From a virus: a stretch of DNA of 64,000 bases. The position numbers and the translations under genes were made by a program. Under the pieces are notes generated by a model. The model ran no database searches. It was not told the DNA's origin and saw nothing but the letters and a program-made list of their open reading frames with translations. Numbering within the stretch: the stretch's first letter is position 1; each line of letters starts with the position of its first letter. Of this stretch, positions 25,675-63,975 are shown one piece after another. The stretch lies in IMG/VR virus record IMGVR_UViG_3300036790_000396, positions 64,001 to 128,000 of that record; one strand, written 5' to 3'.

Positions 25675-26192
25675 CAGGGCTCCTCTCCCGCGCTCAGCTT
25701 CCGGGAGGCGAGTCCGGTTTCCGCGAGGAACAGCCGCAGGAGCGCCTGCATGTCCATGATCTCCCGCCGTGCCGCCGCCGCGTGCTCCCTGAACCGGTCC
25801 TGGTCGAAGTCCGTGACCAACTCGGCATGATGGAGCGAGCCGGCCTTGCGGCTCGCGTCGGCGAGGGCCCTGTGCGCCGTGTCGAGCACTCCCGCGAGGG
25901 TGCCCGCGCGTACCGCGTCCTGGTCGAGGAACTCCAGGTCGCTCTCGCTGTCCTCGGTCCAGTCTGCGTGATGCCTGCGGAGCGTGCTGATCTCCGTGCC
26001 CGCTCCTTCGTCCGGGACGTGATCCCGGATGGTGTAGTCGCCCGCGTGCACTTTCCGGTAATTCCCGTCGGTGCCGATCGCGTAGACGTCCAGCCCGGCG
26101 GAGACGATGACGACGACTGCGGCCCCGGCTCCCGCGTTCTTCTGCAGGTCGATGATGTCCCCGGATTCGGGGACCCTGGTCTGGTAGCTCAT
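25674..26192 (-). CDS. Hypothetical protein (leaderless)
   Basis: -10 TAATAT 7 nt upstream of the ATG. Confidence 0.6.
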   Translation of the reverse strand: MSYQTRVPESGDIIDLQKNAGAGAAVVVIVSAGLDVYAIGTDGNYRKVHAGDYTIRDHVPDEGAGTEISTLRRHHADWTEDSESDLEFLDQDAVRAGTLAGVLDTAHRALADASRKAGSLHHAELVTDFDQDRFREHAAAARREIMDMQALLRLFLAETGLASRKLSAGEEP

Positions 26193-26267
26193 GCCCTGCA
26201 TATTACCAATAAATCTTGGTATATGCCACTCGTCTGCGGCCCGTCCTCGGAAGCAACGGGAGGCACG

Positions 26268-29200: not shown

Positions 29201-29465
29201 GCACATGTACGTCAACCACGCCCGCTCCGGCCCCGCAGCCGGCATGCTGGCCGTGAACCTGGGCCCTGACTCCGGCCGCGTCCCGGACCTCATGCACCGC
29301 GAGCTGGGCTGCCGTACCGTCATGAATGCGATGATGAGCCAGTCGGCGAACGCGGCGAGGACGGAGCCGGGGGAAAGGCAGCCTAGGGTGCGCCATGTCG
29401 CCGAGGGCGTCATCCCGAACGAGCTGCGGCAGCGTGAGGCATCGGCACGACGGAGGATCGCGTGA
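26268..29465 (+). CDS. Zn-ribbon head-associated protein with intein and C-terminal repeated modules
   Basis: GGGAGG RBS; spliced product reads HCPFCGSG...CAFCG; three LETGH modules separated by REAS. Confidence 0.75.
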   Translation: MPQQRFVRIAHDPGDPQLCSHCFGPETRYLTPDGVKTLGETVGTAQRVMTADSLQSHDGRWADAEIRSFGVQQLHRITLKRNKVTKVIRATAGHRWLVRRPDRIVTTDRLLPGHRLATARLPRQELAMDREGICHGFFFGDGSLRRTENADYGKVILWGQKRELASYFEEIAGRPGVEKHTPNGVPGLAFQAGMKGYAKSLPLLTMPPEYLYGWLAGYFAADGWSGGTNASLSSAVRAHLEHVRDICTLLGIGTYGITSKTRTGFGKESEIFEVGFSQSDLNTDFFLRSDHREARRPPPQERFGWTVVSVEPDAEEEVFCAIVPENERFALEDNILTMNCPFCGSGQITGRSDGGIDCAFCGQSFIVRVQPAFPGMPQAPGMGAPTDAGPEGIPVGLPPGAGPEGLPPGADGGMPPGGDEEGGGFPPGGDEDEEAPPGADDEDEDDGAPPFAKKSSRRLGAHEHPDDDLRRHLAEEHGHGWIEYPGVSEISRIHDADHRNRGAAAHRGDIAPPLQSLPEPAARHWPAHRRERFDDPRLGDSYGDRFGAEDVADQYRRETHGQPSPDSDYGRFAPAPPERRHLSVRRYRTISGDVLPEDAYIRHLAVLHSGGSSRVLALLRREAASGGDDGRLPPRSVMTQRQHLQATRDMRDRLAASGFPMDAPSGDEDMRMNPSCRLETGHHISFGVELRGGKHSMFITHPADMGQGRTFLEVGLGRDPSRVADLARRELGCPHVAGEMTEQLRGHGDEPLRQPPSARSVRHEAEGTQPREASLRYRAAFDWDNATEDEADREFQRREDGMQDAVERHGVDSILRPNRVNRIETGHEISFEHHPAEGEGDDYWTVGVNHPADSWTGDAERYPRYYWKGFRGPDDDVVRQAVQHLRSPRTMDVMREQSRRAMSREASLRRRADLDYDEVPEGHAMSKREQISRLREMRGRLEDHGIRMLPSDSGMAPYFDLETGHRILLGLSQQHGDWHMYVNHARSGPAAGMLAVNLGPDSGRVPDLMHRELGCRTVMNAMMSQSANAARTEPGERQPRVRHVAEGVIPNELRQREASARRRIA
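26331..27284 (+). mobile_element. Intein (318 aa) with LAGLIDADG endonuclease
   Basis: Starts CFGPET; block B TAGHRW; GFFFGDG and WLAGYFAADG; ends ILTMN|C. Confidence 0.92.
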
Positions 29466-32400
29466 AGGTCAGGTTCTCGCCGACGGCGGCGCTCCAGCGC
29501 GACCAGGCGGTCGCCCAGGGCATGAGCCGGATGCTCGCCCGCGGCGCGGAAGGCGCCCGCGATGACATGACCCCCGAGGTCGCCGAGGCCCGCATCAACC
29601 GGCGGGCATCGCTGCGCCGGACCGGCAGCTACGGCGGGGGAGGAGGCGGCGGAGCCTCTGGAGGCTTCTCGGACATTCAGTTCGCAACCGGGAGGCCCAG
29701 GGATCCTCTCTTCTACTGGAGGCAGAACAACCTCCCGTACGACTTCAGCCAGAACGAGGAGCTGGCGAAAGTCCGTGCCTTCTGCCGGCTGCTGTACCAG
29801 ACCGACCCGATTGTCGGGTCCTGCATCGACATCTTCACGAAGTTCCCCACGATCGGGATGAACCTGGAGTGCCTCGGGCGTGACACGGGAGTCCTGACGC
29901 GCCAGGGCATGCGTCCTATCGGCGAGCTAGCCGGATCTGCCCAGGAGATCCTGACCGTCGGCGGCAAGTGGGCTACGGCGAAGTTCGAGAATTACGGCAG
30001 CAGGCGCCTTTACAAGATCACCCTGCGCCGTAACCGTCGTGAGAAGACGATTTACGCCACAGAAAATCACCGCTGGTTCCGCTGGAATGCGGACAAGGAA
30101 GCAAGGCGCTACGAGGGATCTTTCAATCCTGCTTCTAAGGTTTCGTGGGAGGATGTTCGAGAAATAAGGCTTAAATACGCTGAAGGCGATATTACTCAGA
30201 AGGACCTGGCTTCAGAGTACGGGATAACTCAGCCGGCGATCGGCCAGATAATCAGGCATGGCACCTGGAAGAATCCTCCCGCTGAGAAAAAGGAGCAGGC
30301 AACTAGAGCCTTTCCGGTGAAGGAAGAGGCAGTCACCGCTGACCTCATGCCGGGAGACCGGCTTGTCAGCGGGTGGTCGAAGAACCTCATCCATTCGACG
30401 TTTCCTTCTCCTTTTGGGATCGCGCATGGCATGACGTACGGAGACGGTTCTCTGGAGACATCCGGAGGCGGCTCCTACATCACGCTGTACGGGGTGAAGG
30501 ATCTCCAGATGCTGCCGTATTTCAACGGCTGCCATGTGACGGATCCTCCCTCTGAAGCTCGCCGGAACGGAAGGCGCGTCAGCGGCCTTCCGTCTTCGTT
30601 CAGGCAGCGCCCGACCTTGGACGAAGGGACTTCCTACCTGTACGGCTGGCTGGCTGGCTACTTTGCGGCAGACGGCACCGTGTCCAGTGGCGGAGAGTGC
30701 TACCTAGATACTGCTTTTGAAGACAATGCCAGGTTCATTCAGCATCTCTGCACAGTCTTGGGAATCAAGACCTATGACTATTACGCGTACACGGTGCCCT
30801 TTGTTCAGACGCCTCAGGGAGCTGTCTACGAAAATCACGAATCATACCGCGTGCCCATCGATTCTGCGTCTCTTACGAAGGATTTCTTCTGCATCAGCGA
30901 GCATCGTGCGCGATGGGAAGGGCGCAAGGAACGTCAGCGACGAGAAGAATGGACTGTCATAGGAGTAGAGCGTACAGACCAGGTCGAAGAGGTTTTCTGC
31001 GCTAAGGTTCCCGAAACGGAATCTTTTGTCATCGAGGGAAATATCCTCACCGGAAACTGCAAGGACAGCCGGCTGGAGGATTTCCACGGCGGCCTGTTCT
31101 TCGACGAGGACCATCTCGACTACGAGGAGTTCCTCGTCGACATCGGCCGCGAGTACTGGACTTCCGGGGAGGCGTGGCCGTTCGCCACGTTCAACGAGGA
31201 TCTCGGCATCTGGGATGACGAGGAGCTGCTCAACCCCGACGACGTCAAGGTCGAGCGCAGCCCGTTCCTGAAGGAGCCCCGCTACTTCATCCGGCTCCCG
31301 TGGACCATCCGGCAGATCCTGCAGACGCGCCAGCCCCAGTACGAGTACTCCCGCCTCGTGCAGGAGTACCCCGAGCTGACCGCCTACACGGCGGAGAACA
31401 CGTTCATGCCCGTGTCGAACGTGCTGCTGCGCCAGCTGAAGTTCCGCGGCGACACGTTCAACGTCCGCGGCCTCCCGCTGCTGACCCGCGCCATGCGCGC
31501 GATGCTGCAGAAGGAGATGCTCAACACCGCGCTGGACTCGATCGCGGACCGGCTCTACACGCCGCTGATCCTGTGCAAGCTCGGCGCCTCCGCCACCGAC
31601 CTCGGGACCAGCCAGCCGTGGATCCCCACCGAGGACGACATGGAGAACTTCGAGCTGGCCCTCGACGCCGCCCTCGCCGGGGACTTCCGTGCCCTGATCT
31701 ACAACTTCGCCGTCGACATGGCGCCCGTCCTGGGCCGCGAGCAGATGCCCGACCTCACCCCTGACTTCGAGCGGATCGAGGACACGGTGCTGCAGGTCTT
31801 CGGGCTGTCCCGCACGCTGCTCACCGGTGCCGGGGCCGGGCAGACCTACGCCGCCGACGCGCTGAACAAGGATCTCGTCACCCAGCTGATGAGCCGGTAC
31901 CAGAAGTTCCTTGCCCGCCACTTCCGGCAGCGCGCCCAGGTCGTCGCCGAGGCCCAGGAGCACTACGACTACCGCGAGCACGGCGGCAAGAGGTACGTCA
32001 TCATGGAGGAAGTCCTCGAAACCGACGAGGAGACCGGCGAGAAGCGCCTCGTCGAGCAGCCCAAGCTGCTGGTGCCCGAGCTGAAGTTCAAGGTGCTGAA
32101 CCTGTCGGACGAGGACGCCCGGCGCCAGTTCATCGAGGCGCTGCGCTCCGGCGGCGTCCCCGTCTCCCAGCGCACCCGCACCCGCGGCCTCGACGTCGAC
32201 CTGCAGGAGGAAGAGGAAGTCTCCTCCGACGAGGCCGTCCGCCAGGCGGTCAAGGAGCAGGAAACCCGCAGGCAGACGTTCATCGCGCTGCGAGACGGCG
32301 GCCTGCCCATCCCGGAGGATCTCGCGACGGACTTCAGCCCGCACGCCCAGGTCCAGGGGATGCCCGCGATGCCCGGCGCACCGGGGATGCCGCTCCCGCG

Positions 32401-32842
32401 CCTGGGCAGCGAGCCGCAGCCGCTGATGGCCCTCGCCCCCGTCCCGCAGGACCAGGAGGAGGAGCAGGCCGCGCAGGAGGACGAGATGAACGCGCCGCCC
32501 GAGGACTCCGGGGGAGAGTTCCCGCCCGCAGGGGAGGAGAGCGCGGTGCCGCCCGAGTCGGGCGAGCAGCGCAAGGGGATGCCCAGCCAGGCTGCCCTGT
32601 TCCGGCGTACCGCCTCGTCCCGCGACCGCGCGCTGGCCCGCCGCCGGGAGCGCAGCGAGCGGCTGGCCGCGGAGGCCGCCGTCCCCGAGGAGCATGCCGG
32701 GGGCCCGGACAGCACCTGGCACTCGTACGGCACCCCCGAGCCGTACCGGACGCCCGCGGTGGTGGGATCGCGGTGGTCGCGCCCGGCCGGGTCGGGCGAG
32801 AAGCCGGAAGCCGATGAGATGGAGTACTTGACACCAGGCTGA
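29462..32842 (+). CDS. Portal protein (cluster C-like) with intein
   Basis: LLYQTDPIVGSCIDIFTKFP...GLPLL.RA...ADRLYTPL recalled as cluster C-type portal; position in the head module. Confidence 0.8.
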   Translation: MKVRFSPTAALQRDQAVAQGMSRMLARGAEGARDDMTPEVAEARINRRASLRRTGSYGGGGGGGASGGFSDIQFATGRPRDPLFYWRQNNLPYDFSQNEELAKVRAFCRLLYQTDPIVGSCIDIFTKFPTIGMNLECLGRDTGVLTRQGMRPIGELAGSAQEILTVGGKWATAKFENYGSRRLYKITLRRNRREKTIYATENHRWFRWNADKEARRYEGSFNPASKVSWEDVREIRLKYAEGDITQKDLASEYGITQPAIGQIIRHGTWKNPPAEKKEQATRAFPVKEEAVTADLMPGDRLVSGWSKNLIHSTFPSPFGIAHGMTYGDGSLETSGGGSYITLYGVKDLQMLPYFNGCHVTDPPSEARRNGRRVSGLPSSFRQRPTLDEGTSYLYGWLAGYFAADGTVSSGGECYLDTAFEDNARFIQHLCTVLGIKTYDYYAYTVPFVQTPQGAVYENHESYRVPIDSASLTKDFFCISEHRARWEGRKERQRREEWTVIGVERTDQVEEVFCAKVPETESFVIEGNILTGNCKDSRLEDFHGGLFFDEDHLDYEEFLVDIGREYWTSGEAWPFATFNEDLGIWDDEELLNPDDVKVERSPFLKEPRYFIRLPWTIRQILQTRQPQYEYSRLVQEYPELTAYTAENTFMPVSNVLLRQLKFRGDTFNVRGLPLLTRAMRAMLQKEMLNTALDSIADRLYTPLILCKLGASATDLGTSQPWIPTEDDMENFELALDAALAGDFRALIYNFAVDMAPVLGREQMPDLTPDFERIEDTVLQVFGLSRTLLTGAGAGQTYAADALNKDLVTQLMSRYQKFLARHFRQRAQVVAEAQEHYDYREHGGKRYVIMEEVLETDEETGEKRLVEQPKLLVPELKFKVLNLSDEDARRQFIEALRSGGVPVSQRTRTRGLDVDLQEEEEVSSDEAVRQAVKEQETRRQTFIALRDGGLPIPEDLATDFSPHAQVQGMPAMPGAPGMPLPRLGSEPQPLMALAPVPQDQEEEQAAQEDEMNAPPEDSGGEFPPAGEESAVPPESGEQRKGMPSQAALFRRTASSRDRALARRRERSERLAAEAAVPEEHAGGPDSTWHSYGTPEPYRTPAVVGSRWSRPAGSGEKPEADEMEYLTPG
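29870..31057 (+). mobile_element. Intein (396 aa) with LAGLIDADG endonuclease and an inserted HTH
   Basis: Starts CLGRDT; ATENHRW; GMTYGDG and WLAGYFAADG; ends ILTGN|C; lower GC than the flanks. Confidence 0.92.
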
Positions 32843-46729: not shown

Positions 46730-46821
46730 GGGGGTGAGGCCGCTGTATCCCGTAGGTGACACGGCGCCCCTGTTAGCCGGCCTCCGTCCCTCGGAAGAAC
46801 AGAGGGACGGAGGCCGTTTTC

Positions 46822-47739
46822 ATGTCGCTGACCAAGTACGCCAGCCTGGAGCTGCTGGAGGCGTGGCGCGTGCCCGCGAAGGCGACGCCGCGCGGGCTGT
46901 CCAAGGCGGCGCACCGCGTCGACTTCGAGTACACGCCGCGGCCCGGCTACCTCGCGTACTGTTGCCATGTGAGAGACAGCAACAAGGGAAAAAGCTGCAC
47001 GGGGCCCGGGTGCCTTCGGGAAGCAAAATGCAAGGGTCTTTGCCTTGCTCATTACACTCAGCGGAGATCTGGAAAAGATCTTTCCGTGATCCGCGTTCGT
47101 GCAAAAAATGCTACGGACTCCTGCGTATTTCCCGGATGCGATCGTCCCCATTTTGCTAAAGAATACTGCAAATCCCACTATCATCAGCGGCAGCGTCACG
47201 GAGAAGTAACAGTATTTCGTCAGTTCTTGGAAATTTGTTCTTTTCCTGGATGCGATCGTGGTCACTCTGCGCATGGATACTGCGACGGGCATGCGATTCA
47301 GCTGCGGAAGGGAAAGGAGCTGTCTCCCCTCCGGGCTCGCCAGAAGGGCCGTGTATGCACAGTAGACGGCTGCAGCGATCCTTACCTTGCCCGCGGCTTC
47401 TGCGCAGTTCATTATAACCAGTGGCACTGGGCTGAATCGGAAGAGGGACGCGAGGCTCGAAAACGTGCTTTCCACAAGCGACGTGCTATTAAGGCATCTG
47501 CCGAGACAAGACTGATCTCTTCTCGCGAATGGAAGCGCCTGGTCAATCGTTACCAGGGGAAATGTGCTTATTGCAGGAAGGCCCCGTGGAATCATCGTGA
47601 GCACATAATTCCCCTAAGCCGCGGTGGAAGGGAATCGATCGGGAACCTGCTTCCGTGCTGCGAGAGATGCAACACGTCTAAGCACAATAAGCTTCTCTCT
47701 GAGTGGAGGTACGGTGCTTCGCAAGTACGCATCGCTTGA
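46822..47739 (+). CDS. HNH homing endonuclease fused to the original N-terminal 44 codons of the prohead protease
   Basis: Four C..PGC....A.G.C..H repeats; CAYC...EHIIPLSRGG...NL...C..CN..K; N-terminus paralogous to 47714-47833. Confidence 0.88.
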   Translation: MSLTKYASLELLEAWRVPAKATPRGLSKAAHRVDFEYTPRPGYLAYCCHVRDSNKGKSCTGPGCLREAKCKGLCLAHYTQRRSGKDLSVIRVRAKNATDSCVFPGCDRPHFAKEYCKSHYHQRQRHGEVTVFRQFLEICSFPGCDRGHSAHGYCDGHAIQLRKGKELSPLRARQKGRVCTVDGCSDPYLARGFCAVHYNQWHWAESEEGREARKRAFHKRRAIKASAETRLISSREWKRLVNRYQGKCAYCRKAPWNHREHIIPLSRGGRESIGNLLPCCERCNTSKHNKLLSEWRYGASQVRIA

Positions 47740-47833
47740 GGTACTGGAGGCGTGGCGTCAGACATCTTCTGCTGCTATGTCGAAAACTGCTCATAGAGTA
47801 GATTTTTCGTACATTCCACGTAAAGGATACTTG
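46954..47833 (+). mobile_element. HNH insertion element carrying a new RBS and recoded protease 5' end
   Basis: Low GC; removing it restores PRPGYL|YVRSRAISSR in frame. Confidence 0.75.
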
Positions 47834-50800
47834 TACGTCCGCTCCCGGGCTATCTCCTCGCGCACCAACGACAACCACGACACGTTCGAGGCCCCGGAGA
47901 TCGAGCAGGGCTACCGGACTTTCCTCGGAAAGCCCGCCTTCGTGAATCACCGTAACAGCAACCACCGCCGTGCCCGCGGCGTCATCGTGGCCGTGGCGCT
48001 GCACCGGGACCGCAACCCTGACGGCTCCCCCGACACCTGGGTCGAGGCACTGCACGAGCTGGACGCGGTGCGGTTCCCCAAGCTGGCGAAGGCGATCATC
48101 GAGGGCCGCGTCAACCGCACCTCGATGGGCGTCGACTGCGAGTACTCCACCTGCTCCGCGTGCGGCAACCGGGCCACCAACCCTGCTGAGTACTGTGCTC
48201 ATCTTCCGGCTCGCAAGGGGCTGAAGATCAGGCAGCGTAACAATGAGACGGGGAAACTGGAAGAGAAGCTTATTCATGAAATATGTGCTGGTCTTACATT
48301 TTTCGAGAACAGTTTTCTCGTAGAGGATCCTGCCGACCCAACTGCCCATGTTTTGGACAAGCCGGACGACAGGGGCATGAAAATAAATGCCTCACGTCAC
48401 GTGCTTCCAGGTGCGCCCCATGCGGATGCAGTTGACCGAGGAAACGGAAACGCCGTACCGGCGCGCTATGTCAGCGAGCGTGAGCGCCCCGGAACCCCGG
48501 TTCATCCAGTCCTTGCCCGTCGCGACCTGAGGCAGCAGTTCACGCTTGATGATCCGGACATCCTCTTCGGTCAGCCTGCGGTTGGGATGAGTCGCCCCGC
48601 GAGCGTGCCGTTCTTTGGACACCATGTCAGCGACGTTGTCGGCCCGCGTGCCGAGGAACCAGTGCATCGGGTTCATGCACGGCGGCCAGTCACAGCGGTG
48701 GAGTACCCCCAGGCGCGCAGGGATCGGGCCGCGAATCAGCGCCCATCCGTATCTCGATCCCAGGACACTTCTGCGGTCCGTGCCCGACAGCGTGAACCGC
48801 GGGTAGCCGGTCCTGAAGAATCCTCCCGTCCACGGATTGCAGAATCCCGGTCCGGGCGTGAAGTCGATTTTCGACAGGAAGCGCTCGATCTCGGACTCAG
48901 TGCTCGCGAAGCGTCCGTCTACCAGCGATCGTTCCATGGACGTGATTCTATCAATAATCCTAGGCAGGCCCGCTACCTCACCATGGATGAGGCCCGCGCT
49001 GCGGGCCGCGAGGCCATCCGGCGGCAGGCGGAGGATCCCCGCTTCGACGGCGTCGGCCTGAAGCAGGACGATGACGGCTGGTACGTGCGCACGCACCGGG
49101 CGCGCAGCCGTTCCCATCCCGTCCCGGAGGCGATCCCCGCGAAGGACATCGAGTTCATCCGCTCTACCGGGTCCCGCCGCACCGCCCGCAACGAGGAGGG
49201 CGGCGAGATGCCGGTAGTCCCCTCCAGCCGCCTCCCCCGGGTGAGCCTCCCCGAGTCCCGGAGCAGCTATGAACAGGCCGGCGACTTCCTGGATAACCTG
49301 CTGGGCAACGTGGGAAATCCGGACGCGGCTGAGTGGAGGCCGTCCTATCCCACCCGCGGCTGGGACGACGAGCGCCAGCCCAGGCTGCACGAGGAGCTGC
49401 GCAAGTCGCGCGAGCGCAACCTCCGGCGCGACATTGACGATGACAGCGGCGAGGGCCTGGCCAGCAAGCTCGACCGCCCGGAGCAGTGGGAGCACCAGAT
49501 CGAGCACGGCCTCCCGGAAAGCCTGTTCGGTGCCGGCGTGCACGTCACGCACGATTTCAGGGACGATCCCGAGGGCTTCCTCCGCGACCGGTGGAACATG
49601 CGCGCCTTCCCGTACCGCGACCCGGGCGGCACCGGCCCCGGAGGCCTGAAGCCGTCGAACAAGTGGGTCCGCAAGACCTGGCAGCGGGCAGTCGGCCCGC
49701 TGGCCTGCGACCACCCCGGCTGCCCGCCCTGGGAGCACCGGGGGCCGCGCCCTCAGGCATCGCTGCGTACCGCTGACCGGGACGATGATTACTTCTACGA
49801 CGAGGACGACGATCAGCACCCGGATGAGCTGCCGAGCCGCCGGGACTGGCGCCGGGAGGATGACGTGACCCGCAGCGAGTCCTACCCCTATTCGCCCTCT
49901 CCCGGCTCGGAGGGGCGCGACGACCTGGCGGGCTCCCGCACCCGCGGGCGCCGCGCCGCCGAGTCGTGGGACGGCTTCCCCGACGTGCGCCCCGCTCCGC
50001 CGTCCGGCCCGCGCCTGTCCAGCCGTGTCGCGGCTGCCGGGGACAGCTGGGAGCCTGATCAGTGCCCGGAGTGCGGCGAGGGCTGGACCGAGGGCAGCTC
50101 GCGTTTCGATGACTCAGACTCGCAGTGCCTGAACTGCGGTACCCGTTACAATGCTTTTTCCGGGGCTCCGCTCAGCGATGACGAGATTGCCGTTAATGAT
50201 GCTGCGATGGCCAACGAGCAGCAGAAGCGCGAGGACACGCGCTCCGGGCAGGAACTGTGGAGGAAAGTCCACCCGGGCCCCGGGCACGAGTACTCCTATA
50301 ACCCGGCCGGCGACAATGCCCCGCTGGAGATGATGAATGACCTGCAGGACCAGGAGAACCAGGACAAGAGCGGACCGCTGCGGCTGAACCCGAGGCTTCC
50401 CTCCTACGAGAAGATGATGCGCCGCCGGCGCGAGCGCGCCATCCAGCAGTGGCCGTCCCATCAGGAGGTCCCCGTCGCCCCTCCGGGGACGGAGAGGCTG
50501 TCCAGCCGCATGGCGAAAGGGCGCCATGACTACCGGATGATGCACCAGGCTCCCGACCGGCACAGCGGCGTTCCCTATCACGAGGCGAGCGGCGCGGACC
50601 CGGATGACCTGGTCACGATCTACCGGGGAGTGCCCCGGAACGTGAAGACGATTCACCGCGGCGACTGGGTGACCACCGATCCGGCCTACGCCCACCAGCA
50701 CGGGCGCCACAACTCCGACCCATCGAAAGACTGGCCGGTGCTGCAGGCGGACGTTCCTGCGCGGCACCTGTACTGGGACGAGAACGACGAGAACGAGATC

Positions 50801-53020
50801 GGCTACCAGGGGCCGCACCTGGGCCAGCGTGACGTGAGCTACCACGAGGAAGACCCGGATGATGTCCCGGGCGCTGCCGATCCTGATGCGTGGCGCGGGC
50901 ATTTCGCCTCCGTGCGCCGCCGCGCGGACATCTCCGACGACGAGATCCGCCGCGGCCTGAACCTCCCCGGCTCCCGCGAGGAGGAGCACCAGGAGGACGT
51001 GCGCGACAAGGTGAACGGCCTCTTCGGCCCGCTGCACGAGGACTACGGCGGCCAGGAGAACTACAACCTCGCCCGGCAGAACGACACGATGACGGACCTG
51101 CAGCGCCGCTTCGAGGGCGGCCGGGGCAGGTTCGCCTTCGACGAGGAGGGGGACCCCTACTACGAGGCCCGGCACCCGTCCGGCTGGAGGGCCCGTGTCT
51201 ACACCGACCAGAGCGGCGAGGCCCAGGTCCACCACGACGCGACCGGCGACGAGGCCCACGACGTGATGGACATCGGCGAGTGGGGGCCGCAGGGTCACCG
51301 CCTGTCAGAGACCTACGGCCCCGCCGATCTTGACCGTGATCTCGCCGCGTGGCACGGCGATGACGGCGAGGAGGGGTACCGGGCGCACCTGGAGCAGGAG
51401 GACCCGCGCATCCGCCGGCGGAAGCGCCGTCATCAGGGCGCGCGCCGTACCGCCGCCGACCAGCCGCCGCGGATGCCCCCGCCCGTCGACACGCTGCGCC
51501 CCGACAAGTGCCCCGTCTGCGGGGACAGCGACGTGTTCAAGGGCCAGCGCTGCTCCGTGTGCGGGTTCGTCGCGCCGCCGGACATCTTCCGCGATCCCGA
51601 CACCCAGCAGGCCGCGCAGAACCACCAGATGCTCGAAGAGGGCAAGGTCCCCCTCGGCATGCCGGAGGGGCCCGCCGACGAGGAGCAGGTCGGCTCCGGC
51701 CAGGACGCTGACGACCAGCTGCTGCACCCTGACCAGATCGCCCCCGACGGCGTCCCCGGCGTGCAGCCCGGCAGCAGCCAGCCCGAGAACGGCCCCCTCG
51801 GCGGCGGCCAGGACGAGGGCCTCGTCGATCCCTCCCGCGTGAGCGCCCAGGGCGACGTCCCCGAGGAGGACGAGGAGCAGGCGGCGCAGCAGGAGACGGA
51901 CGAGGGAGAGCAGCAGGCGGCGGAAGGACAGGCCGAGGAGGAAGAGGGAGCGGCCCGCGCCGACGAGGCGCAGGCAGCCGCAGCGGGGGAGCAGGAGGCC
52001 GAGGACGCTGACGCGGATGCCTCGCCCCGGAAGGATCAGGACGACGACCGCCCCGGAGGGAAACGCAGGATGGCTAAGCAGCAGCAGCGGCGGCAGGCAC
52101 CGCCCCGGTCTCGCCAGGAGCCGCGGACTGCCGCGACTGCGGTGCTGGCCGCCCAGCAGGACACCATCCGCCGGCAGGCGGCCCAGATCCGCTCTCTCGC
52201 CGCGCAGATGAGCTTCCTCGCGGACCTCGCCGGGGTCCGGCCGCAGATGGAGCAGATCCGCCGGCAGGCCGACATGATGAACCCGGCCTCCCCCGTCCCG
52301 GACCCGCCGGAGCGGCCCCCGTACGAGACCACCGAGCAGGCGCTCCAGCCGGAGACGATGGGCGACGCGAGCCGCCCGGGCACCGAGCCCGGGTCGACGT
52401 CGCACGTGCCTGCCGCGATGACCACCACTTCCGTCACGCCGGGCGTCGAGATCCAGACGGCGCCGGCCTCCTACCTCGATGACGTCACCGCTCCCGTCCA
52501 GGGCACCAACCCGTCGGAAGACGGCGGCGTGCCGGTTGAGCAGCGGCGCATCGAGACCGATGTCCGGATTGACCCTGACCCGCTGAAGGCCCAGGGTCCG
52601 GGCATCGGGGGACTGGGCAGCGACGGCACCGCCTACCCGTGGGTGATCGCCGCCCGCGGCGGCATGCCGCGCACCGCCTCGCAGGCGGCGGCCTCGCAGG
52701 AGGATGAGCACGGGGCGCGCACGTTCGCCTCGATCCGCCTTGCCCGCGCCCGCGTCACCGCGGGGCTCGCCCGCGGCGACGAGCTGGAGGGCGCGGCCCT
52801 CATCGAGAAGGACGCGTCGCTGTCCCTGAGGGACATCGAGCGGGAGATCGGCACGCTGGAGAAGGTCGCCGCCGCGGCCCCGCCGCAGCGTCCCCGCGCC
52901 TCGCAGCGCACCGCCGCCCGGTCGGCGCCGTCGATGTCCGCGCCGCCGCAGCTGGCCCGCACGGCGAGCTACTCCGACCCGGGCGACCCGATGGACGCCT
53001 CGGACGTGTTCCTCGACTGA
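47714..53020 (+). CDS. Prohead (capsid maturation) protease / cargo / scaffold polyprotein
   Basis: GGAGG RBS plus GTG; RAISSR.NDN.D.F...GKP.FVNH...TSMG...CS.CGN protease-like domain; internal modules; helical scaffold-like C-terminus. Confidence 0.8.
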   Translation: MLRKYASLEVLEAWRQTSSAAMSKTAHRVDFSYIPRKGYLYVRSRAISSRTNDNHDTFEAPEIEQGYRTFLGKPAFVNHRNSNHRRARGVIVAVALHRDRNPDGSPDTWVEALHELDAVRFPKLAKAIIEGRVNRTSMGVDCEYSTCSACGNRATNPAEYCAHLPARKGLKIRQRNNETGKLEEKLIHEICAGLTFFENSFLVEDPADPTAHVLDKPDDRGMKINASRHVLPGAPHADAVDRGNGNAVPARYVSERERPGTPVHPVLARRDLRQQFTLDDPDILFGQPAVGMSRPASVPFFGHHVSDVVGPRAEEPVHRVHARRPVTAVEYPQARRDRAANQRPSVSRSQDTSAVRARQREPRVAGPEESSRPRIAESRSGREVDFRQEALDLGLSAREASVYQRSFHGRDSINNPRQARYLTMDEARAAGREAIRRQAEDPRFDGVGLKQDDDGWYVRTHRARSRSHPVPEAIPAKDIEFIRSTGSRRTARNEEGGEMPVVPSSRLPRVSLPESRSSYEQAGDFLDNLLGNVGNPDAAEWRPSYPTRGWDDERQPRLHEELRKSRERNLRRDIDDDSGEGLASKLDRPEQWEHQIEHGLPESLFGAGVHVTHDFRDDPEGFLRDRWNMRAFPYRDPGGTGPGGLKPSNKWVRKTWQRAVGPLACDHPGCPPWEHRGPRPQASLRTADRDDDYFYDEDDDQHPDELPSRRDWRREDDVTRSESYPYSPSPGSEGRDDLAGSRTRGRRAAESWDGFPDVRPAPPSGPRLSSRVAAAGDSWEPDQCPECGEGWTEGSSRFDDSDSQCLNCGTRYNAFSGAPLSDDEIAVNDAAMANEQQKREDTRSGQELWRKVHPGPGHEYSYNPAGDNAPLEMMNDLQDQENQDKSGPLRLNPRLPSYEKMMRRRRERAIQQWPSHQEVPVAPPGTERLSSRMAKGRHDYRMMHQAPDRHSGVPYHEASGADPDDLVTIYRGVPRNVKTIHRGDWVTTDPAYAHQHGRHNSDPSKDWPVLQADVPARHLYWDENDENEIGYQGPHLGQRDVSYHEEDPDDVPGAADPDAWRGHFASVRRRADISDDEIRRGLNLPGSREEEHQEDVRDKVNGLFGPLHEDYGGQENYNLARQNDTMTDLQRRFEGGRGRFAFDEEGDPYYEARHPSGWRARVYTDQSGEAQVHHDATGDEAHDVMDIGEWGPQGHRLSETYGPADLDRDLAAWHGDDGEEGYRAHLEQEDPRIRRRKRRHQGARRTAADQPPRMPPPVDTLRPDKCPVCGDSDVFKGQRCSVCGFVAPPDIFRDPDTQQAAQNHQMLEEGKVPLGMPEGPADEEQVGSGQDADDQLLHPDQIAPDGVPGVQPGSSQPENGPLGGGQDEGLVDPSRVSAQGDVPEEDEEQAAQQETDEGEQQAAEGQAEEEEGAARADEAQAAAAGEQEAEDADADASPRKDQDDDRPGGKRRMAKQQQRRQAPPRSRQEPRTAATAVLAAQQDTIRRQAAQIRSLAAQMSFLADLAGVRPQMEQIRRQADMMNPASPVPDPPERPPYETTEQALQPETMGDASRPGTEPGSTSHVPAAMTTTSVTPGVEIQTAPASYLDDVTAPVQGTNPSEDGGVPVEQRRIETDVRIDPDPLKAQGPGIGGLGSDGTAYPWVIAARGGMPRTASQAAASQEDEHGARTFASIRLARARVTAGLARGDELEGAALIEKDASLSLRDIEREIGTLEKVAAAAPPQRPRASQRTAARSAPSMSAPPQLARTASYSDPGDPMDASDVFLD
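48392..48937 (-). CDS. HNH endonuclease with C-terminal HTH, nested antisense inside the protease ORF
   Basis: C..WTG...GY......V.H.CD.P.C.NP.H...GT..DN..D...K.R; HTH tail; own -10 TAGAAT 7 nt upstream of the ATG. Confidence 0.9.
   Translation of the reverse strand: MERSLVDGRFASTESEIERFLSKIDFTPGPGFCNPWTGGFFRTGYPRFTLSGTDRRSVLGSRYGWALIRGPIPARLGVLHRCDWPPCMNPMHWFLGTRADNVADMVSKERHARGATHPNRRLTEEDVRIIKRELLPQVATGKDWMNRGSGALTLADIARRYGVSVSSVNCIRMGRTWKHVT
52070..53020 (+). CDS. Putative internally initiated scaffolding protein (in frame with the protease)
   Basis: GGAGGG/AGG RBS and an upstream 18-bp copy of the putative late-promoter motif (52025-52042). Confidence 0.5.
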   Translation: MAKQQQRRQAPPRSRQEPRTAATAVLAAQQDTIRRQAAQIRSLAAQMSFLADLAGVRPQMEQIRRQADMMNPASPVPDPPERPPYETTEQALQPETMGDASRPGTEPGSTSHVPAAMTTTSVTPGVEIQTAPASYLDDVTAPVQGTNPSEDGGVPVEQRRIETDVRIDPDPLKAQGPGIGGLGSDGTAYPWVIAARGGMPRTASQAAASQEDEHGARTFASIRLARARVTAGLARGDELEGAALIEKDASLSLRDIEREIGTLEKVAAAAPPQRPRASQRTAARSAPSMSAPPQLARTASYSDPGDPMDASDVFLD

Positions 53021-53193
53021 TGGCGTGGTCCGTAACGGTCAGCGAGGACCTTCATGACGTGGTGCTGCCGTCCGGCCTGCGGGTGCAGGGCGGCGGCAGC
53101 GCCGTGCTGTCGGACCGGGAGTTCTCGCTGCTGCCGGAGGCGTCCCAGTTGTCCGGCGGCATTTTCTCCGCGGTGAGCCAGGTGACGTCGTGA
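53020..53193 (+). CDS. Small paralog of the head-fibre N-terminal domain
   Basis: VVLPSGLRVQGG..AVLSD.EFS versus IVLPNGLRVQGG..VVLSD.EYS; stop/start overlaps at both ends. Confidence 0.7.
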   Translation: MAWSVTVSEDLHDVVLPSGLRVQGGGSAVLSDREFSLLPEASQLSGGIFSAVSQVTS

Positions 53194-54026
53194 CCTATCA
53201 GGTGACCCTCGCCGACGGCGTCCCCGATATCGTGCTGCCGAACGGGCTGCGCGTGCAGGGCGGTGCGGTCGTCGTCCTGTCGGACGGGGAGTACTCCCGG
53301 ATCACTGACGCTTCCTCCGCGATCCTGTTCTCGTCGGTGACGTACCTGGGCGGGGGCGCTGGCAACGCCGTTTCCTCGTTCAACGGGCGCACCGGTAACG
53401 TCGAGCCCGCATCGGGCGACTACACGGTGTCCGAGGTGACCGGTGCGGCGCCTCTCGCCTCTCCCGTGTTCACGGGCACCCCCGCAGGCCCGACCGCTGC
53501 CGCGGGAACCAGCACCACCCAGCTGGCCACGACGGCGTTCGCCACGACCGCCCTGGCGCTGAAGTCGAACATCGCCTCGCCGACGTTCACCGGCACTCCC
53601 GCCGCGCCGACGGCCACGGCGGGTACCTCGACCACGCAGCTGGCGACGACCGCGTTCGCCACCGGGGCCGTCGCGACGGAGACCACCAGGGCCGAGACTG
53701 CGGAGGCCCTCAAGGCACCGCTTGCCTCCCCTGCTTTCACCGGTCAGGTGTCAGCCACCACGGTCGGTGACGGCTATTCGGTGGCCGAGGGCAGCAGCGG
53801 CAAGCAGGGAGTCGTTACCCTTGCTGCCGGATCCGCTACGGTTGACACTGCGAGCGTGACGGCGAACTCGCGGATCTTCCTGACCGTGCAGTCGCTGGGC
53901 ACAATAACCGCCCCTGCGGCGGTTGCAGTCACTGCGAGGACTGCGGGCACCTCCTTCACCATCACTTCGGCCTTGGGTACTGATACCTCGGTCGTCGCTT
54001 ACGAGATCTTCGAGCCCGCAGCCTGA
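53190..54026 (+). CDS. Head fibre/decoration-like structural protein
   Basis: SFNGRTG.V; repeated APLASP.FTGTP.APTA..GT.TTQLATTAF. Confidence 0.7.
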   Translation: MTYQVTLADGVPDIVLPNGLRVQGGAVVVLSDGEYSRITDASSAILFSSVTYLGGGAGNAVSSFNGRTGNVEPASGDYTVSEVTGAAPLASPVFTGTPAGPTAAAGTSTTQLATTAFATTALALKSNIASPTFTGTPAAPTATAGTSTTQLATTAFATGAVATETTRAETAEALKAPLASPAFTGQVSATTVGDGYSVAEGSSGKQGVVTLAAGSATVDTASVTANSRIFLTVQSLGTITAPAAVAVTARTAGTSFTITSALGTDTSVVAYEIFEPAA

Positions 54027-58103: not shown

Positions 58104-59123
58104 ATGACCGAACTCGCGACGCTGGCCCCCCAGGGGCAGCTGACCGCGCAGGGCGCTCCGTCCGGGCTGCGCCGCGTAGCGGCTCGCAAGTCTGACGACT
58201 ACGTCACGGACATCGAGCGGCGGCGGGCCTCCCGCTCGCCGCTCACCCGTGAGGCCAAGGTCCGCAAGATGGCCCTGGTCCTGTCCGACGAGATGCACGG
58301 CTTCCGCCGCCTGGGCGTCGGCATGGTCGGCCCCATCCAGCTCAAGCTCCGCTATCAGGGCATCACCCGCAACGTCCTGGTGGAGGACCCGGTCACCCCC
58401 GGCACTCCCGTCGAGTACGACGTGTGGGACGACCTGGGCCAGGCGTACATCCTGTCCGGCACCGAGGGCGAGGTCCGCGTGACCCCGTTCGAGGGCAAGC
58501 GGATCCCGGTCCGGTTCTTCCGGATCGCGTCCCGCCCGGCGATCCGCAAGGAAGACCTCTTCTACCTGCGGATCAACGCGGTCGAGCAGGCCCAGGACGA
58601 GACCAAGCAGGCGATCCTGAAGCAGGAGGACGCGCGGCTGCTCGTCATCCTGCAGGCCGCCGTCACGGACTACGCCACCCGCCCTGACCACGTCGTCACC
58701 CCGAACCACAACATCACCGAGGCCAGCGGCTACCTGACGCCGGGCTCCCTGTACTCCGCGGTCGCGATGACCGACCTGCACGAGCTTCCCTCGGCGCGGA
58801 TCCTCATCAACCCGTTCGACTTCCGGGACCTGTACAGATGGGACATAAACCAGACAGGATGGGCTTTTAAGGACAGGGTGGTAGCTGGTGAGACAATCAC
58901 CTCATTTGGTGAGTTTCAGCTCCAGCGCTCCATCATCGTCCCGCAGGCCAAGATCTTCCTGACGCCCGAGCCGAACTTCCTGGGCGTTTTTCCAGTTCTG
59001 TACTCTCTTGATGTGGAAGAGAACCATCTGGTCGAGGCTTTCTGGAAAGGTTGGGTTTTCGACGAAATGGTGGCCATGTCGATCCTTAACCCAAGGGGCA
59101 TAGCTACTATAACGAAAAGCTGA
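58104..59123 (+). CDS. Major capsid protein (Bxz1/cluster C-type)
   Basis: GPIQL.LRYQGI.RNVL.ED...FEGKR...DLYRWDIN.TGWAFKD.VVAGE...FLGVFPV.YSLDVEE. Confidence 0.93.
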   Translation: MTELATLAPQGQLTAQGAPSGLRRVAARKSDDYVTDIERRRASRSPLTREAKVRKMALVLSDEMHGFRRLGVGMVGPIQLKLRYQGITRNVLVEDPVTPGTPVEYDVWDDLGQAYILSGTEGEVRVTPFEGKRIPVRFFRIASRPAIRKEDLFYLRINAVEQAQDETKQAILKQEDARLLVILQAAVTDYATRPDHVVTPNHNITEASGYLTPGSLYSAVAMTDLHELPSARILINPFDFRDLYRWDINQTGWAFKDRVVAGETITSFGEFQLQRSIIVPQAKIFLTPEPNFLGVFPVLYSLDVEENHLVEAFWKGWVFDEMVAMSILNPRGIATITKS

Positions 59124-63328: not shown

Positions 63329-63342
63329 CTATAATCCTTGGT

Positions 63343-63975
63343 ATGGACATCTACCTCGTGATCCACGAGACACATAACGCCGACACGGAGGTGACTCCCT
63401 TCGTTCTCGACCTCGACGCCTTCCGGTTCGCCTCGCAGCAGGTCCAGGATTCCTTCGCCGGGTCCGGCACCATCCCCGACCCCCGCGAGTTCGAGATGGA
63501 ACTCACGCAGGTCATGGCCGCTGCCGGCTGGATGTGGTACTGCCGCTACCATCCCGAGGGCGACTCGGTCCGCGTCGTGAAGCGGGAGCTGCGCGGCGTC
63601 GAGACGGCTCCCGGGTTCCTTCCCTCCTCCTGGATGCCGTCCCCGGAGGAGACCGCGGAGCTGGCGCAGACCCTCGCGAACGTGACGAACCTCTCCCGCA
63701 CTCCCGTCAAGCCCTTCCTGTATGACGTGTATGACAACCTGGGCCAGGCCGGGCCGTACCCTGTTCCTTCCGTGCGCCTGCCCGGCACGGAGCCGGGCGA
63801 GCACGTTCCCGTCACGGGCACGTGGCACAGCACCGCTGAGGATTCCGCCAGCGACGAGGACGAGTTCGCCGCCTGGTGGGACGAGGCCGCGGAGCTGAGC
63901 AAGTACGAGGACATCCGCCAGGCGGCCCGCAGCACCTGGATGGCGGCGCGCGGCTGGACGGGGGAGAACGGATGA
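63343..63975 (+). CDS. Hypothetical protein (leaderless)
   Basis: TATAAT 7 nt upstream of the ATG. Confidence 0.6.
   Translation: MDIYLVIHETHNADTEVTPFVLDLDAFRFASQQVQDSFAGSGTIPDPREFEMELTQVMAAAGWMWYCRYHPEGDSVRVVKRELRGVETAPGFLPSSWMPSPEETAELAQTLANVTNLSRTPVKPFLYDVYDNLGQAGPYPVPSVRLPGTEPGEHVPVTGTWHSTAEDSASDEDEFAAWWDEAAELSKYEDIRQAARSTWMAARGWTGENG

Follow-up and report, generated by a model that had tools for sequence, protein, structure and literature searches.

How can a phage head gene hold a complete homing endonuclease gene, written backwards within its own reading frame, and still be read from end to end? This question was raised by a 64,000-nucleotide (nt) stretch of DNA (the window), comprising bases 64,001 to 128,000 of the virus record IMGVR_UViG_3300036790_000396, a 146,944-bp large soil phage sequence with direct terminal repeats and a G+C content of ~70%. 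A head-protease-like polyprotein gene on the plus strand of the window (47714..53020; ~1768 amino acids [aa]) encodes a protein that begins with an N-terminal protease-like domain and continues with variable modules of cargo and scaffold-like type; the gene contains a reversed HNH endonuclease gene. A prediction previously made from the letters of the window (the original prediction) held that this gene is silent in a third way, neither as an intron nor as an intein, by being translated as junk and cut out by the protease of the host gene. Our analysis leads us to consider it likely that a free-standing HNH cassette lies backwards in the linker after the protease-like domain, that the host ribosome reads through it as ~190 aa of junk, and that the nuclease is privately transcribed and homes together with a recoded flank.

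The HNH gene (48392..48937, minus strand) directly follows the N-terminal protease-like domain and encodes 181 aa in exact codon register inside the host open reading frame (ORF). Confirming the original prediction of a complete HNH and helix-turn-helix (HTH) gene, the ORF matched PHROG HNH families at E values of 1e-17 to 1e-12, and tblastn with the protein retrieved >1000 phage records at 89-98% coverage. Pfam HNH_3 gave only 17.5 bits, under its cut-off of 24.8. Residues H80, C82, C87, H92, and N101 were invariant across 20 homologs. In an AlphaFold2 (AF2) model with a predicted local distance difference test score (pLDDT) of 82, residues 12-116 aligned to I-PpoI (Z 8.4; root-mean-square deviation [rmsd] 3.9; 103 residues aligned), and residues 120-178, at the C-terminus, aligned to HTH domains (Z 3.3-4.7). 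The 12-116 segment also aligned to I-HmuI (Z 7.6; rmsd 2.9; 87 residues aligned), with the next rows at Z 5.4. By its catalytic core and modeled fold, the element is an HNH (beta-beta-alpha-Me) homing-type endonuclease with predicted cleavage activity. Codon-position G+C showed a minus-strand coding signal, a shift to codon position 1, over 48390-48940, with the G+C content at third codon positions (GC3) of the host frame at 0.86-1.0 on either side. The cassette was absent from the isolates searched, among which the best tblastn identity to the HNH protein was 38%.

With only the HNH protein as query against soil metagenome and viral contigs, we collected seven further lineages (L010, L012, L013, L014, L015, L018, and L022, into which the identical L011, L019, and L020 were collapsed) whose HNH proteins are 55-70% identical to that of the window. 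In all seven, the same protease-like domain (...FFENS.LVEDPADPTA...) is followed directly by the HNH gene, which runs on the other strand in codon register 0. No insert interrupts the host frame, which forms ORFs of 1250-1800 aa or continues up to the contig ends, and the other two antisense registers over the inserts are broken every 15-215 codons. Together with the window (WIN), these are the eight lineages of our openness statistic. Two deeper lineages, L027 and L028 (HNH proteins 47-48% identical), have the same arrangement, and five polyproteins also contain junk; all were reached via the host protein and were left out of the count because that route can recover open frames only. On the host strand of L013 (4544-4600), L014, and L015, the linker P-D-x-R-G-[LM] is duplicated with one copy on each side of the insert, a pattern suggesting, from the sequence, that a copy of the host tail belongs to the cassette itself.

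The purifying selection on the minus frame and the stop avoidance on the plus frame to be expected of such homologous inserts were both found. Among the eight lineages, the ratio of nonsynonymous to synonymous substitution rates (dN/dS) in the HNH frame was 0.16-0.41 at dS values of 0.6-1.6. Over the same columns, the proportions of nonsynonymous (pN) and synonymous (pS) differences in the host frame were 0.33 and 0.28, respectively, and with pN at least equal to pS, protein-level constraint is absent from the host frame over the insert. Stops are also absent, as originally predicted for the window, where no host-strand stop occurs across the HNH gene or its 5' flank. Host-strand stops would arise only from the HNH codons TTA, CTA, and TCA, and none of these occurred among 1430 HNH codons of the eight lineages (CTN/TCN codons ending in A, 0 of 171; TTA, also 0). 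Same-genome genes of like GC3 use 5.9 such codons per 1000, so that ~8.6 were expected in the HNH set (P ~1e-4). At conserved Leu/Ser columns, the codon had changed in 12 of 20, always to a G, C, or T ending and never to A. Two free-standing HNH homologs contained 3 stops (GC3 0.81) and 6 stops (GC3 0.60) in the same register.

The caveat, already attached to the original prediction, that this antisense register is often open by chance in GC-rich DNA was right for the window alone. Control windows of 190 codons at GC3 0.75-0.90 in these phages were open in 29-49% of cases, making the open register unremarkable in any one genome. The caveat does not extend across the eight lineages, for which the product of the open probabilities at their observed GC3 values is ~3e-4, a value that is remarkable for lineages ascertained through the HNH. 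From these codon counts, we regard stop avoidance on the host strand as real but not overwhelming, and it argues that the host frame across the insert is in use.

The original prediction had also given the HNH gene its own leaderless promoter, and comparison of the inserts bears this out at the level of sequence. The promoter core (48938..48950, minus strand) consists of a -10 hexamer, TAGAAT (48950-48945), and a 7-nt spacer to the ATG. A TAnnnT hexamer was found exactly 7 nt upstream of the HNH ATG (-13..-8) in 10/10 lineages, with the variants TAGAAT, TAGCAT, TAGGAT, TAGTAT, TATGAT, TACAGT, TATGCT, and TACTTT. TAnnnT positioned 7 nt ahead of ATG is the geometry of actinobacterial leaderless transcripts. 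The conserved arrangement thus fits a private leaderless promoter of the HNH gene. A scan for consensus sigma-70 promoters found none, and terminator-like matches were at chance level. Across the window, the pattern TAnnAT-N7-ATG was observed 4 times against 0.57 expected. Other such sites resembling leaderless starts lie at 26190-26205 (minus strand) and 63330-63345 (plus strand), and the site at 26205 and the HNH promoter both have ATT(T)ATTG ahead of the -10 box.

On the other side of the HNH gene, the 3' codons of the protease-like domain and the linker (48185..48391, plus strand; ending ...PDDRGMKINA) are synonymously recoded to A/T endings. GC3 was ~0.47 over ~48200-48390 versus ~1.0 at the same codons in HNH-less relatives, which use G/C-ending codons there almost throughout, in line with the AT-rich recoding first noted in the window. 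Within the final 20-60 codons of the protease-like domain, synonymous A/T endings were confined to HNH-bearing alleles, and an A/T-ending patch over H-E-I-C-A-G is common to WIN, L010, and L022. At 48184-48316, the codons of a ~96% identical relative from another soil study (run X2) end in G/C. The site itself is polymorphic for presence and absence: ten lineages carry the insert, and it is missing from L005-L009, relatives that are 80-88% identical and have flanks of 78-88% identity. L005 provides the empty site for L010, with flanks 78-85% identical and a net difference of 185 codons between ...DKPYLH and REPAFTP. These comparisons tie the recoding to the presence of the HNH, and it is likely, on sequence grounds, that protease DNA in its conserved, un-recoded form is the target of the nuclease and that the recoded flank is carried along.

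The plus-strand product of the insert (48392..48964, opposite the HNH gene and its promoter) would be a peptide of ~190 aa that is Arg/Ala/Pro-rich and hydrophilic (R 16%; no K, C, or W; isoelectric point [pI] 10.9; grand average of hydropathy [GRAVY] -0.86). It had no match in Pfam, and in a search of 988-3147 aa proteins in a database of 5.8 billion sequences, the sole match was the window's own protein. Just past the insert, R-Q-A-R (48962..48973, plus strand) is a variant of a recurrent [RK]-[TQ]-A-A motif at module boundaries and a candidate cleavage site. The tripeptides RTA (22 versus 5.2 expected), TAA (33 versus 8.5), and KTA (13 versus 1.7) are enriched in the polyprotein tails, and L014 has RQAA in place of RTAA at the same C-terminal position. 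A strict [RK]-T-A-A-type motif occurs 5-19 residues past the insert in 4/8 lineages, against a base rate of 6% per 25 aa, and 10-16 residues past the domain in 3/4 HNH-less relatives; in the 30 residues before the insert, it was found in 0 lineages. The motif was defined post hoc and is suggestive only, with the 3-mer enrichment dominated by conserved modules such as CPVCG. The insert thus lies between the protease-like domain and the first native motif of this kind, and a cut past the junk is plausible from sequence.

The original prediction went further and had the junk bracketed exactly by MKINA↓S and PRQA↓R, so that the protease of the host gene would excise it cleanly as a proteolytic analogue of an intein. 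We consider such two-sided excision unlikely. In WIN, L012, and L022, the HNH stop does coincide exactly with an A↓S junction. Polyprotein tails are 4-8 fold enriched in the [RK]-[TQ]-A-A-like motif, which recurs past the insert or domain; the right-hand RQA resembles this module-boundary motif, and the duplicated linker flanks the junk in three lineages. However, the left junction is variable, with GM↓S, RG↓L, AG↓L, and TS↓S also seen, A↓S occurs in only 3/8 lineages, and the lack of any strict motif on the left leaves exact bracketing without generality. R-x-A-like strings occur inside the junk as well, and the identity of the domain as a protease is itself weakly supported. The Ser codon TCA (48392-48394) is indeed the HNH stop codon TGA read backwards, as had been pointed out, but this is trivial arithmetic, and Leu (from a TAA or TAG stop) stands there in three lineages. 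A broader version, in which a homing endonuclease gene (HEG) lineage has specialized for a backwards life in an essential head polyprotein, the junk being trimmed or made harmless by the host maturation protease, can be offered only tentatively; such an element would be a proteolysis-dependent intein analogue made viable by selection against three endonuclease codons.

How far proteolysis can be invoked depends on the host gene. Its plus frame is stop-free over 47624-53020 (a translation of 1798 aa), and its true start is the GTG at 47714, 4 nt downstream of GGAGG. The first ~215 residues matched phrog_2774 (E 1.5e-57; profile of 1263 positions) and phrog_18299, "head maturation protease" (E 3.6e-23). 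The protease-like domain (47780..48358, plus strand) has invariant His57/His62 and Ser115 in alignment A2, and 10 relatives are 75-81% identical to the window copy. A profile search with the domain found 2486 representatives in proteins of 300-2557 aa, in which it is nearly always N-terminal, indicating that the host gene is a polyprotein of a protease-like domain plus variable cargo. The gene is syntenic with Finch gp17, Phrappuccino gp53, and Myrna gp97. Among isolates, Rhodococcus phage Finch and cluster-C-like mycobacteriophages come closest; there the homologous domain heads proteins of ~850-1200 aa ahead of a small gene and then the major head gene. Megablast of 46800-53100 against isolated phages returned zero matches. 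In herpesvirus UL26-type and HK97-type systems, an N-terminal maturation protease is fused to capsid-interior modules and freed by self-cleavage, at Ala↓Ser sites in the herpes proteins, and the host gene likewise has an N-terminal protease(-like) domain with downstream modules. Membership of the window domain in these families would be tentative, and its protease label is weak, drawn from the PHROG match, the invariant His and Ser, and head-module synteny.

Two further alternatives would remove the need for a read-through insert. The segment might be spliced out, being either an intein whose endonuclease is encoded antisense or a group I/II intron that carries an antisense ORF, and antisense endonucleases within inteins are documented in actinobacteriophages (10.1101/2025.01.02.630785). 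We regard this as extremely improbable. No Rfam family was detected at E<=1 on either strand of 47500-49500, and no Pfam Hint or intein match was found in the whole 1798-aa translation, in keeping with the "neither intron nor intein" of the original prediction. Only ~25 nt (~8 codons) of the insert lie outside the HNH ORF, too little to accommodate a ribozyme or a Hint domain. Furthermore, the junctions do not show C/S/T+1 after HN, the host frame over the insert is free of protein-level constraint, and an intron would need no stop avoidance. Splicing and split-gene models lack support.

The other alternative is that GC-richness alone left the register open and that the insert is a recent arrival, tolerated or mildly harmful, with the downstream modules dispensable or internally initiated. 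A single 190-codon window of this GC3 is often open, and the cargo modules vary widely enough among relatives that some may be dispensable. Chance and decay nevertheless seem very improbable to us, since all eight independently ascertained lineages are open despite dS ~1, and the ~1350 host codons downstream keep GC3 at 0.86-1.0 and conserved C-terminal modules. Internal initiation also finds no obvious site: an in-frame start preceded by a Shine-Dalgarno sequence was found downstream of the insert in none of the lineages, whereas the gene's own start has GGAGG, and L013 lacks any start codon within 70 codons past the insert.

The backwards, read-through cassette accommodates these observations as follows. 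A unit of ~190 codons, made up of a -10 box, a leaderless ATG, the 181-codon HNH+HTH ORF, and a stop, sits in the linker after the protease-like domain. Because the HNH avoids TTA, CTA, and TCA, ribosomes on the head gene would read straight through, adding a basic, probably disordered peptide between the protease-like domain and the first cargo module. The insert may be tolerated because its site is a linker, in a protein that probably undergoes cleavage into pieces in any case. After a cut at the first native motif downstream, the junk would most likely remain as a C-terminal tail on the freed protease domain or as a fragment. The HNH would be transcribed separately from its host-type leaderless promoter, and the nuclease probably cleaves HNH-less relatives in their un-recoded protease-coding DNA, spreading through repair together with the recoded flank.

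Several points weigh against this interpretation. Searches of Pfam, NCBIfam, and the PDB with the sequence of the protease-like domain gave zero matches, and hhalign against HK97 gp4 was negative (probability 0.3). An AF2 model of the domain built from 11 close sequences was poor (pLDDT 60), and with this model Foldseek and a wide VIA-align search found no clear fold match; the proteases of varicella-zoster virus (VZV) and human cytomegalovirus (HCMV) appeared at noise level only (Z 4.4, E 0.2). Our strictest internal control for stop avoidance, in which A endings were set against T endings within the HNH genes' own Val/Ala/Pro/Thr boxes, gave only P ~0.04. The P values also treat lineages as independent despite shared ancestry, which a pairwise dS of ~1 makes roughly fair. 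Run X2 has a joint (48346 to 48964) that would represent an empty site, but it rests on a 23-nt side with undetermined letters between and is a hint only. Finally, the arrangement is known from sequence alone, and all of the genomes are metagenomic, the viability of each being assumed.

The claim that this way of being silent is new in kind did not hold. The ShiLan domain is a hidden, out-of-frame HNH in a DNA methylase of cluster F1/E/J/A1 mycobacteriophages (Arsenault, Gosselin & Gogarten 2025, PMC11855218). As in ShiLan, the insertion here is in frame without a host stop, intron and intein features are lacking, and the HNH occupies another reading frame of the insert, in this case antisense register 0. 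The distribution is patchy and homing-like in both, and the hosts of ShiLan are actinobacteriophages for which leaderless initiation is invoked. In contrast, the ShiLan HNH shares the strand of its host gene, in frame +3, and has its GTG within the host transcript, whereas the HNH studied here runs antisense, in register, and has a conserved -10 box of its own; ShiLan occupies a dispensable methylase gene, whereas our insert sits in an inter-domain linker of a head-module polyprotein. The likeness is one of arrangement.

Inteins with antisense-encoded homing endonucleases have been described in an actinobacteriophage survey (bioRxiv 10.1101/2025.01.02.630785) and earlier (Gorbalenya 1998, Gogarten 2002). 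They share with our case an endonuclease ORF antisense in a segment that the host ribosome translates as non-domain sequence. In those inteins, however, a conserved Hint splicing domain flanks and removes the segment. We found no splicing domain, so any removal of the junk here would be by proteolysis, or there would be none at all. Free-standing HEGs also interrupt phage genes, examples being mobE in Aeh1 nrdA and, in T4, mobA with its gene 60 bypass. These too are free-standing HNHs in conserved phage genes and presumably spread by cleaving a nearby conserved target with co-conversion of flanks, but their host genes are split into two polypeptides or need ribosomal bypass, whereas the polyprotein gene remains a single ORF that is read through. 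The present case thus joins the ShiLan-type hidden HNH to an antisense, translated-through endonuclease without a splicing domain, and adds a private promoter and a site in a head polyprotein.

The surrounding locus contains several other features of note. The polyprotein gene lies between the portal gene (29462-32842, plus strand) and the major head protein gene (58104-59123). The portal ORF has an N-terminal extension of ~530 aa, the portal PHROG match beginning only at residue 532, and its residues 222-278 match the HTH part of an HNH-family profile (E 2e-10); possibly this extension is what remains of another element. Immediately upstream of the polyprotein gene, and overlapping its start, is a second HNH, of low GC (46822-47739, plus strand, with 46954-47833). 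A contig in run X2 joins 46953 to 47834 with a 77-nt side, skipping 880 nt, and thus represents a close relative without this upstream element. Within the polyproteins of the window (48959-53020) and L005-L022, the cargo after the protease-like domain is shuffled and includes zinc-ribbon modules, an ITGEEAEPG module, and a ParB-C-like segment (phrog_2579, E 4e-22), and a conserved C-terminal R-L-A-R-x-R-V-x-A-G-L block is present in every polyprotein compared. Between the polyprotein and major head genes, and hence within the head module, a tail-fibre-like gene (53190-54026, plus strand) encodes a K1-lyase_C intramolecular chaperone domain (E 2.4e-22).

With these findings, the splicing-free class of hidden homing endonucleases comes to include antisense members, housed in a phage gene that is structural and probably essential. 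They also supply what the published case lacked, many diverged copies in which purifying selection on the nuclease frame, bare stop avoidance in the host frame, and a private promoter can be seen. Gene callers report one long ORF at such loci and overlook the nested gene. For phage engineering, the linker past the protease-like domain would be a site that tolerates ~190 arbitrary residues, and the recoded flank would be a natural example of target-site immunity through synonymous change. For the theory of mobile elements, our results support the idea that splicing is not the sole route by which a homing element may be harmless to its host gene.

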